Of a DNA stretch of 64,000 nt, positions 24,229 to 24,594 are shown in pieces. Position numbers and translations under genes: made by a program. Source of the stretch: Candidatus Altimarinota bacterium (GTDB lineage: Bacteria; Patescibacteriota; Gracilibacteria; 1-14-2-50-48-13); NCBI GenBank assembly GCA_046314355.1, contig JBKBWQ010000001.1, positions 768,001 through 832,000 on the forward strand, in the 5' to 3' direction. The notes beneath the pieces were generated by a model. The model was given only the letters and a program-made list of their open reading frames with translations. It was not told the origin of the DNA and ran no database searches. The first letter of the stretch is position 1. Each line of letters begins with the position of its first letter.

Positions 24229-24540
24229 GTAGCCAATCCTAGCCCATAGTTCCTATTTTAAGTCTTGAGTAAAATTCTTTTGGAATTCTTCTTATTACTT
24301 AAGTTCCATACCTGTATCCTTGTACAATGTAATGCTCTCTCTACATTGATCAAACCAAAGATTCAAATTGGATTTCATCGAGAATGAGTCTCTCTCGATA
24401 ATAGTACTATGCAGCGCTGATTATATTCTGTCTTTTCCTACCATCAGTTAGTAGATACAGATGCTTCTTTCAAAGTACTGTGCTCTCCAAGAGATGATAA
24501 AAGGACAAATGAACAGAAATGATCGATTCGGATTGGCTAC
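24229..24540 (-). ncRNA. candidate structured non-coding RNA (~312 nt), unassigned
   Basis: Perfect 11-bp terminal helix GUAGCCAAUCC/GGAUUGGCUAC followed by UUUU; TTGCAA-N17-TATTAT promoter ends 6 nt before the first G; several internal hairpins; no long ORF. Confidence 0.5.
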
Positions 24541-24594
24541 ATAGATATAATACCACATTGTATAATATATTGCAATAATTATATATTTTGTAAA

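Follow-up and report, generated by a model that had tools for sequence, protein, structure and literature searches.

A number of large structured bacterial noncoding RNAs (ncRNAs) have been described, including OLE, ROOL, GOLLD, raiA and HEARO, whose functions are either unknown or have only recently begun to emerge. New large structured RNAs are rare, and earlier ones have led to ribozymes, ribonucleoproteins and RNA assemblies. S-layer-type genes elsewhere in bacteria have long stabilising 5' leaders, and the bacteria of the Candidate Phyla Radiation (CPR), whose tiny genomes carry little spare DNA, are poorly understood episymbionts. Here we describe a structured RNA of approximately 312 nucleotides (nt) on the minus strand of a 64,000-nt stretch of DNA (the window; positions 768,001 to 832,000 of contig JBKBWQ010000001.1) from a Candidatus Altimarinota bacterium of the Gracilibacteria, where a 428-nt spacer separating a VanW-domain gene from an SLH gene contains the RNA. 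The host genome (G000) measures 1.69 Mb and is 98% complete. All coordinates are window positions, and position i of the RNA corresponds to window position 24541 - i. The RNA is probably a genuine, structured and selected ncRNA of an undescribed family, which is present in environmental RNA.

Fold and boundaries of the RNA

The minimum-energy fold obtained with ViennaRNA for 316 nt of the minus strand has an energy of -94.4 kcal/mol, while shuffled sequences averaged -66.5 +/- 5.1 kcal/mol and 0/100 of these were as stable (minus-strand z -5.51), so that the folding score suggested as a check in the preliminary description of this locus gave a structure beyond chance. When the two strands were compared, the minus strand reached -93.2 kcal/mol versus -79.9 kcal/mol for the plus strand (z -4.29), which carries the same terminal repeat yet folds weaker. 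The RNA and its parts are as follows:

24229..24540, minus strand: structured RNA of about 312 nt, supported by its fold z-score and by RNA-library contigs on 24252-24519
24547..24575, minus strand: promoter-like site, with TTGCAA at 24575-24570, a 17-nt spacer, TATTAT at 24552-24547 and TG before the second hexamer
24530..24540, minus strand: 5' strand of helix P1, GUAGCCAAUCC, RNA 1-11, first base G24540
24229..24239, minus strand: 3' strand of helix P1, GGAUUGGCUAC, RNA 302-312, with UUUU next at 24225-24228
24511..24529, minus strand: hairpin P2, RNA 12-30, loop UCAUU, in the minimum-energy fold
24427..24509, minus strand: domain A, RNA 32-114, a long irregular hairpin with a GAAA tetraloop at RNA 70-73, which includes helix 60-63/81-84
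24406..24426, minus strand: hypervariable junction plus the 5' strand of the domain B closing helix, RNA 115-135
24377..24399, minus strand: hairpin B1, AUCGAGAG/UUCUCGAU, RNA 142-164, in the minimum-energy fold
24305..24372, minus strand: hairpin B2, RNA 169-236, with apical stem CAAUGUAG/UUACAUUG, in the minimum-energy fold
24258..24302, minus strand: hairpin B3, RNA 239-283, UUAAGU/ACUUAA plus an inner stem

The P1 helix, with six G-C pairs among its 11 base pairs (bp), joins both ends of the RNA (RNA 1-11 with 302-312). The terminal helix and the U-run behind it had both been noted earlier, and GUAGCCAAUCC does pair perfectly with GGAUUGGCUAC; the flanks read ...AUCUAU before the RNA and UUUUGU... 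after it. Domain B spans RNA 126-299, is closed by a 14-bp interrupted helix and bears hairpins B1, B2 and B3, and the variable junction proper is confined to RNA 115-125. Several of the internal pairings listed in the preliminary description are part of the minimum-energy fold (AUCGAGA/UCUCGAU, CAAUGUA/UACAUUG and UUAAG/CUUAA), and others are absent from it (GUCCUU/AAGGAU and GUUC/GAAC). The promoter given there was also found at 24575-24547, as a consensus match only: it has 9/12 consensus matches and lies 7 nt upstream of G24540, which gives a predicted start of transcription at approximately 24540. Promoter-like sites in general show no enrichment here (seven seen versus 6.1 expected from shuffles). 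The stretch contains no open reading frame (ORF) of 60 amino acids or more, as had been stated; the longest is 40 amino acids, on the plus strand (24265-24387).

Variants from RNA libraries and the predicted structure

Four sequencing runs were aligned to positions 23900-24900 at a likeness of at least 80%. The only DNA run containing the stretch was a hot-spring metagenome, its likely source, and an independent assembly of this run reproduced the locus in a 21-kb contig with zero differences. Related sequences were found in two freshwater metatranscriptomes from different studies: run X2 gave one 270-nt contig on 24252-24519 with 17 differences, and the five contigs from run X3 (31-160 nt, 0-21 differences) lie on 24252-24512. 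Taken together, six of the seven contigs aligned from these RNA runs fall within 24252-24519 (31-270 nt, approximately 86-100% identity), and none of the six crosses the borders of the RNA. The seventh contig, from X3 (59 nt, 81% identity), is located in the SLH domain region, has loose ends on both sides and looks unrelated. Apart from this 59-nt piece the RNA runs gave no cover of the flanks (23900-24251 and 24520-24900), which does not count as evidence because diverged flanks escape alignment at 80% likeness. Contigs 2 and 4, which come from different runs, both end exactly at 24252, one base short of the strand of the domain B closing helix (RNA 291-299) predicted to pair with the most variable segment (RNA 124-135); these stops would presumably mark a break point in the de Bruijn assembly of mixed strains. 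Run X22 belongs to the study of the source run and contained no matching contig, and runs X4-X20 contain about 5% of the sampled words, which provides no evidence on habitat or expression.

The differences in the variants rec2, rec4, rec7 and rec8 were mapped onto the minimum-energy structure. In rec2, rec7 and rec8, which have no insertions or deletions, all changed pairs with both partners covered remain paired. In the helix ACAG(60-63)/CUGU(81-84), C61-G83 is changed to U-A, A62-U82 to G-C and G63-C81 to U-A; these three adjacent pairs of one helix are changed on both sides, and with five partial variants available the support is confined to portions of the two domains A and B. Where A is changed to G opposite U, which is seen six times, the result is a G-U pair on the minus strand and would be a C-A mismatch on the plus strand, and hence the sense strand is the minus strand; the A-U to G-U changes in domain A are at positions 55, 92 and 112. 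That the variation is both compensatory and strand-specific points to selection on the RNA.

Random placement of the changes was used for comparison. When the ten changes of rec7 were placed randomly in domain A, at least three double-compensated pairs were obtained in 8/20,000 placements, and no pair was broken in 399/20,000. Scored by the energy of the variant on the reference structure, random placements were as good in 85/2000 cases for rec2 and 37/2000 for rec7, and in 535/2000 for rec8, which has two changes only. In variant rec4, seven substitutions and an inserted base are clustered inside 12 nt of the basal helix of B2 (local hairpin 173-231); the hairpin re-registers to give 12 continuous pairs (-18.3 versus -19.4 kcal/mol), and scattered random changes were as good in 51/1000. 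With regard to the pairings proposed earlier, AGUACU/AGUACU and UCUGU/ACAGA did not hold up: both are outside the minimum-energy fold, rec7 breaks three changed pairs of the former and keeps one, and the variants break two of the latter and keep one. The variants that break these two helices instead favour the local helix ACAG(60-63)/CUGU(81-84). A small coding ORF was also considered and rejected, based on the 1-nt insertion in rec4 and the absence of 3-base periodicity in our own tally of variable sites.

Variation is distributed unevenly over the RNA. Positions 115-135 contain nine variable positions with up to three different letters at one site, whereas hardly any change is seen among the variants in B1, in B3 and at the apex of B2, with invariant blocks at 24320-24352 and 24364-24394. 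Hairpin B1 is identical in five variant contigs save for A146 to G, which gives a G-U pair, and no difference is listed in B3 for contigs 2 and 4, although changes close to contig ends go unlisted. Hairpin P2 is represented in a 12-letter loose end of contig 7, where the loop is retained and one stem pair is flipped, which is weak evidence and our own reading.

These data bear on the view that the RNA is an AT-rich spacer which folds well by chance, with the matches in the RNA libraries being DNA carry-over from related organisms. The runs consist of contigs, so that transcription is not strictly demonstrated, and the match to the promoter consensus does not exceed background, both of which are consistent with this view. 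It nevertheless appears highly unlikely given the z-score and the compensatory changes, the confinement of all six matching contigs to within the borders of the element, and a conservation of 86-100% for a spacer, compared with 83% amino-acid identity for the closest relative of the VanW protein.

Known RNA families

Rfam 15 was searched at the gathering score over the whole window, and at E-values up to 10 over 1001 nt and 361 nt. The former gave tmRNA alone and nothing at the RNA, while the sole match at E up to 10 was RF04355 (53 nt, 20.5 bits, E 2.5-6.9, cut-off 52.5), which is at chance level; the Infernal comparison proposed in the preliminary description thus assigned the RNA to no known family. 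That description had left the choice between a novel large structured ncRNA and a very diverged housekeeping RNA, and it is the first part which is supported, the second being largely refuted. A diverged RNase P RNA, signal recognition particle (SRP) RNA or 6S RNA would share the paired ends seen here, and neither an SRP RNA nor a 6S RNA is detectable in this 98%-complete genome, but we consider this explanation extremely improbable for the following reasons. The RNase P RNA of the host (type A, 149 bits) is located elsewhere, at C1:1260698-1261138, 470 kb away, the tmRNA is 1.1 kb from the RNA, and RF00010 and RF00011 gave no match at the RNA locus at E up to 10. In agreement with the earlier remark that signatures of RNase P and SRP RNA were not found, the RNA does not match the covariance model of either family. 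It was also not found in 150 genomes of the class, unlike a housekeeping RNA.

Searches with RF00169 and RF01854 at E up to 10 gave no SRP RNA in either the window or the whole host genome, and the same families were found in 0/41 genomes of the class. The protein components were not found either: the Ffh M domain (PF02978) had 0 matches in the host genome, the best match there to the SRP54-type GTPase of Ffh and FtsY (PF00448) was 18.2 bits, under the 22.7-bit cut-off, and this GTPase exceeded the cut-off in 0/31 genomes of the class, while all control genomes gave matches in the SRP searches. Among ORFs of at least 150 amino acids in the host genome none had the SRP GTPase motifs. Since the SRP proteins were not found in the genome, no SRP RNA is expected, and the RNA is not an SRP RNA. 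The lineage has probably lost its SRP, and this loss is probably already known, as two SRP subunits are given as missing in many CPR bacteria (PMC8080830).

With regard to 6S RNA, RF00013 gave no match at the RNA locus at E up to 10, and none was detectable in the host genome. The minimum-energy fold is multi-branched, and its supported local hairpins (60-84 and 173-231) do not fit the 6S rod with its central bubble. Separately, 6S-like RNAs of approximately 155 nt, at or just under the Rfam cut-off, were seen in 8/31 genomes of the class and in 0/4 genomes of this family.

Three further candidates were tried and rejected. A CsrB-like sponge is not indicated by the six GGA motifs, which are about the expected number and with one exception lie wholly within predicted stems. 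The bases of a possible GAAA-tetraloop receptor at UAUGG 231-235 are altered in rec4, and the neighbours do not include the reverse transcriptase gene that would be expected for a retron or another reverse transcriptase-associated ncRNA. Finally, no description of such an RNA was found in the literature on RNAs of Gracilibacteria, Peregrinibacteria and the CPR, a weak negative as papers are not searchable by sequence.

Genomic context, copy number and distribution

The RNA is flanked by genes on the same strand:

23282..24166, minus strand: SLH gene (294 amino acids; three SLH domains; N-terminus resembling a signal peptide), ORF start 62 nt past the RNA
24595..26061, minus strand: VanW-domain gene, a 488-amino-acid ORF upstream of the RNA
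22733..23154, minus strand: tmRNA, 105 bits (Infernal/Rfam), 1075 nt downstream of the RNA
24203..24224, minus strand: 22-nt downstream element GUAACAAUCUUAGUGUUGCUAC, directly past the U-run, which folds alone into a small hairpin

The ORFs are intact under translation table 11, as fits a bacterium that probably uses the standard code, and the distance of 1075 nt to the tmRNA agrees with the 1.1 kb given in the preliminary description. A promoter-like site precedes the tmRNA (23202-23175), and no terminator-like site follows its 3' end; this tmRNA is detected by Infernal but missed by ARAGORN, which gave neither a tRNA nor a tmRNA for the window. A terminator-like site is located 3' of the SLH gene (23254-23237).

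The RNA is present as a single copy in the host genome, as seen with BLAST, with a covariance model made from the single sequence (R1) and with a scan for its end motifs, and the latter occur 15 times in the genome with up to one mismatch, compared with about 27 expected by our own estimate. No target-site duplication was found in the sequence flanking its borders. The dispersed copies with target duplications that would betray a miniature inverted-repeat transposable element (MITE), named in the preliminary description as grounds for giving up an RNA gene, are therefore not seen. A MITE-like element or the remnant of another mobile element, with terminal inverted repeats at the DNA level and an incidental fold, would account for the perfect 11-bp terminal inverted repeat, for the degenerate copy of the end sequence directly downstream, and for the absence of the surrounding block from the same place in two relatives of the family (see below). 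It is nonetheless most unlikely for a single-copy sequence with end motifs no commoner than chance, with neither a target-site duplication nor a phage, plasmid or viral match, and with variation that is compensatory and strand-specific.

Between a KH-domain ATPase gene and the tmRNA lies a 3.2-kb block (23155-26343) made up of the SLH gene, the RNA and the VanW gene. This block is missing at that place in G001 and G002, two relatives of the same family in which the KH-domain ATPase gene lies beside the tmRNA with other small genes between them; the replacing content is a 239-amino-acid ORF on the opposite strand in G002 and an unannotated spacer of approximately 370 nt in G001. No such RNA was found beside the VanW orthologues of the family relatives: in G002 the orthologue is followed by a convergent gene, and in G003 it ends 87 nt from the end of its contig (C288), with the following sequence unassembled. 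The closest known relative of the VanW protein, with 83% amino-acid identity, is encoded on a 3.3-kb public contig. A VanW search of metagenome contigs gave one distant locus (30% identity), and a search of genome contigs with a VanW alignment gave two loci in metagenome-assembled genomes of 'Candidatus Gracilibacteria' (33-34% identity) without an RNA downstream. The relatives' genomes are all 0.7-2.0 Mb in size, and R1 applied without filters to five loci reached at best 8.9 bits (E 0.19). The earlier suggestion to look for homologues has thus been borne out for the RNA-library variants, which are related and have compensatory pairs, and not for related genomes. Either the RNA family is narrow, or it is too diverged for a single-sequence model.

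The SLH proteins are greatly expanded in this organism. The 294-amino-acid SLH protein matches 34 places in the host genome, some in ORFs of 1000-2900 amino acids, and further SLH genes are found in the window at 15622-18822 and 20792-21643. This suggests an elaborate SLH-anchored cell surface, and the proteins are too numerous for any orthologue to be named. Adjoining genes for a UmuD-like S24 peptidase and a UmuC-like Y-family polymerase (18895-20567, minus strand) resemble an SOS mutagenesis pair, which is unexpected in a reduced genome.

Stand-alone RNA or leader of the SLH gene

The position of the RNA allows two readings of its function. On balance we lean towards the RNA being a discrete and stable RNA of approximately 310 nt that functions in trans. 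This is supported by the very strong terminal helix followed by a U-run, and by the confinement of the RNA-library contigs to the element. The tmRNA also lacks a terminator-like site, which means that a missing terminator does not exclude a stable processed RNA. More tentatively, and with rather less than even confidence, we suggest that it could be the first known representative of a new ncRNA family in a lineage of Gracilibacteria-like CPR bacteria of hot springs and freshwater. Members of this family would be highly expressed, intricately folded and approximately 310 nt long, and would act in trans either as ribozymes or as the RNA at the core of a ribonucleoprotein. Minus-strand transcription would proceed from the TG-extended sigma-70-like promoter, with a start at about 24540, and P1 would then join the ends, thereby enclosing P2, domain A, the variable junction and the three-hairpin domain B. 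The paired termini may protect the RNA against exonucleases, and the near-invariant B1, B2 apex and B3 could be the binding or tertiary-contact surfaces of a ribonucleoprotein with which the RNA would act in trans. The ends given here are predictions, and the same applies to the use of this promoter, to an RNA independent of the SLH mRNA, and to any activity or partner protein.

A number of results weigh against a stand-alone RNA of a new family. Only 62 nt separate the RNA from the co-oriented SLH ORF downstream, with no promoter-like or canonical terminator-like site between them, and the segment 24211-24220 can pair with the 3' strand of P1, which fits a cis-acting leader. The runs consist of contigs, from which neither the strand nor the ends nor the abundance of an RNA can be read, and DNA may be present in RNA libraries. 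Only five partial variants from at least three lineages are available, with rec2 and rec7 sharing most of their changes; P1 is outside the cover of all variant contigs, the structure examined was taken from the reference sequence, and a test of the R-scape type was out of reach. Variant rec4 breaks three pairs in the original register, and its control with clustered changes is weak (131/1000 as good). Furthermore, R1 matched only the host genome itself in 150 genomes of the class and 150 of the phylum, and BLAST searches of 60 relatives gave no homologue, with 6/60 having matches of 19-35 nt (E 0.002-0.007) which we read as noise. None of 185,579 species genomes contained an exact 25-mer from the invariant block, three exact 21-23-mers had 0 occurrences each in viral contigs, and blastn in distant mode gave no match in phages and plasmids.

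The second reading, and the main alternative, is that of a structured 5' leader of the SLH gene, in which one long mRNA would start from the promoter at 24575-24547, the fold closed by P1 at its very 5' end would either sense a signal or make the message more stable, and the segment downstream would serve as expression platform. The RNA is in a 5' untranslated position with the co-oriented SLH ORF 62 nt on, and the missing promoter and terminator before this ORF gain weight from the fact that both nearby SLH genes end in canonical terminators. In the fold of 24130-24262, the 5' half of the downstream element GUAACAAUCUUAGUGUUGCUAC (24211-24220) is able to form an alternative 10-bp pairing with the 3' strand of P1; the element occurs once in the genome, looks like a shortened copy of P1, and could be either an expression platform or a chance occurrence. 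P1 is, however, a great deal stronger than the P1 helices that switch in known riboswitches, and would probably form before its competitor is transcribed. No known aptamer class matches the RNA, R1 finds one copy in the host genome despite the 34 SLH protein matches, and no SLH orthologue with the RNA element was found in 12 relatives. The RNA-library contigs end inside the RNA and none extends towards the ORF, a weak argument since contigs break at variable sites. We therefore regard a leader as possible but rather unlikely.

Comparison with known systems

An ncRNA of 312 nt that is under structural selection and seen in environmental RNA, in a tiny genome which has probably lost its SRP, is likely to be important to the cell. 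Its sequence, the partly validated structure and the invariant blocks provide a seed for covariance-model searches of metagenomes and metatranscriptomes. If it does represent a new family, it would be one of the earliest examples of a lineage-specific structured RNA from the CPR, while a leader of this size would be an unusually large cis-element, with a cell-surface protein under its control.

Compared with S-layer and SLH leaders and with leaders of the riboswitch type, the RNA shares the co-oriented SLH gene downstream, a fully base-paired 5' end and a possible alternative pairing. At 312 nt and with at least six helices it is, however, much larger than the S-layer leaders known to us, its strong 11-bp P1 and the absence of an aptamer match set it apart from riboswitch-type leaders, and the other SLH genes of the host genome are without the RNA element. 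With RNase P RNA, 6S RNA, SRP RNA, tmRNA and bacterial Y RNA it has in common a long helix joining its ends and its detectability in RNA libraries, and like the nearby tmRNA it lacks a canonical terminator, whereas in contrast to the stable housekeeping RNAs it is not conserved across the class. The RNA differs from OLE, ROOL, GOLLD, raiA and HEARO in having no Rfam match and no associated protein genes recognised alongside, and in its far more restricted distribution (a single genome plus a few environmental RNA variants), and it is also smaller than OLE, ROOL and GOLLD. Like these RNAs, it is hundreds of nucleotides long, multi-branched and non-coding, has conserved hairpins, and was found by its structure and conservation.

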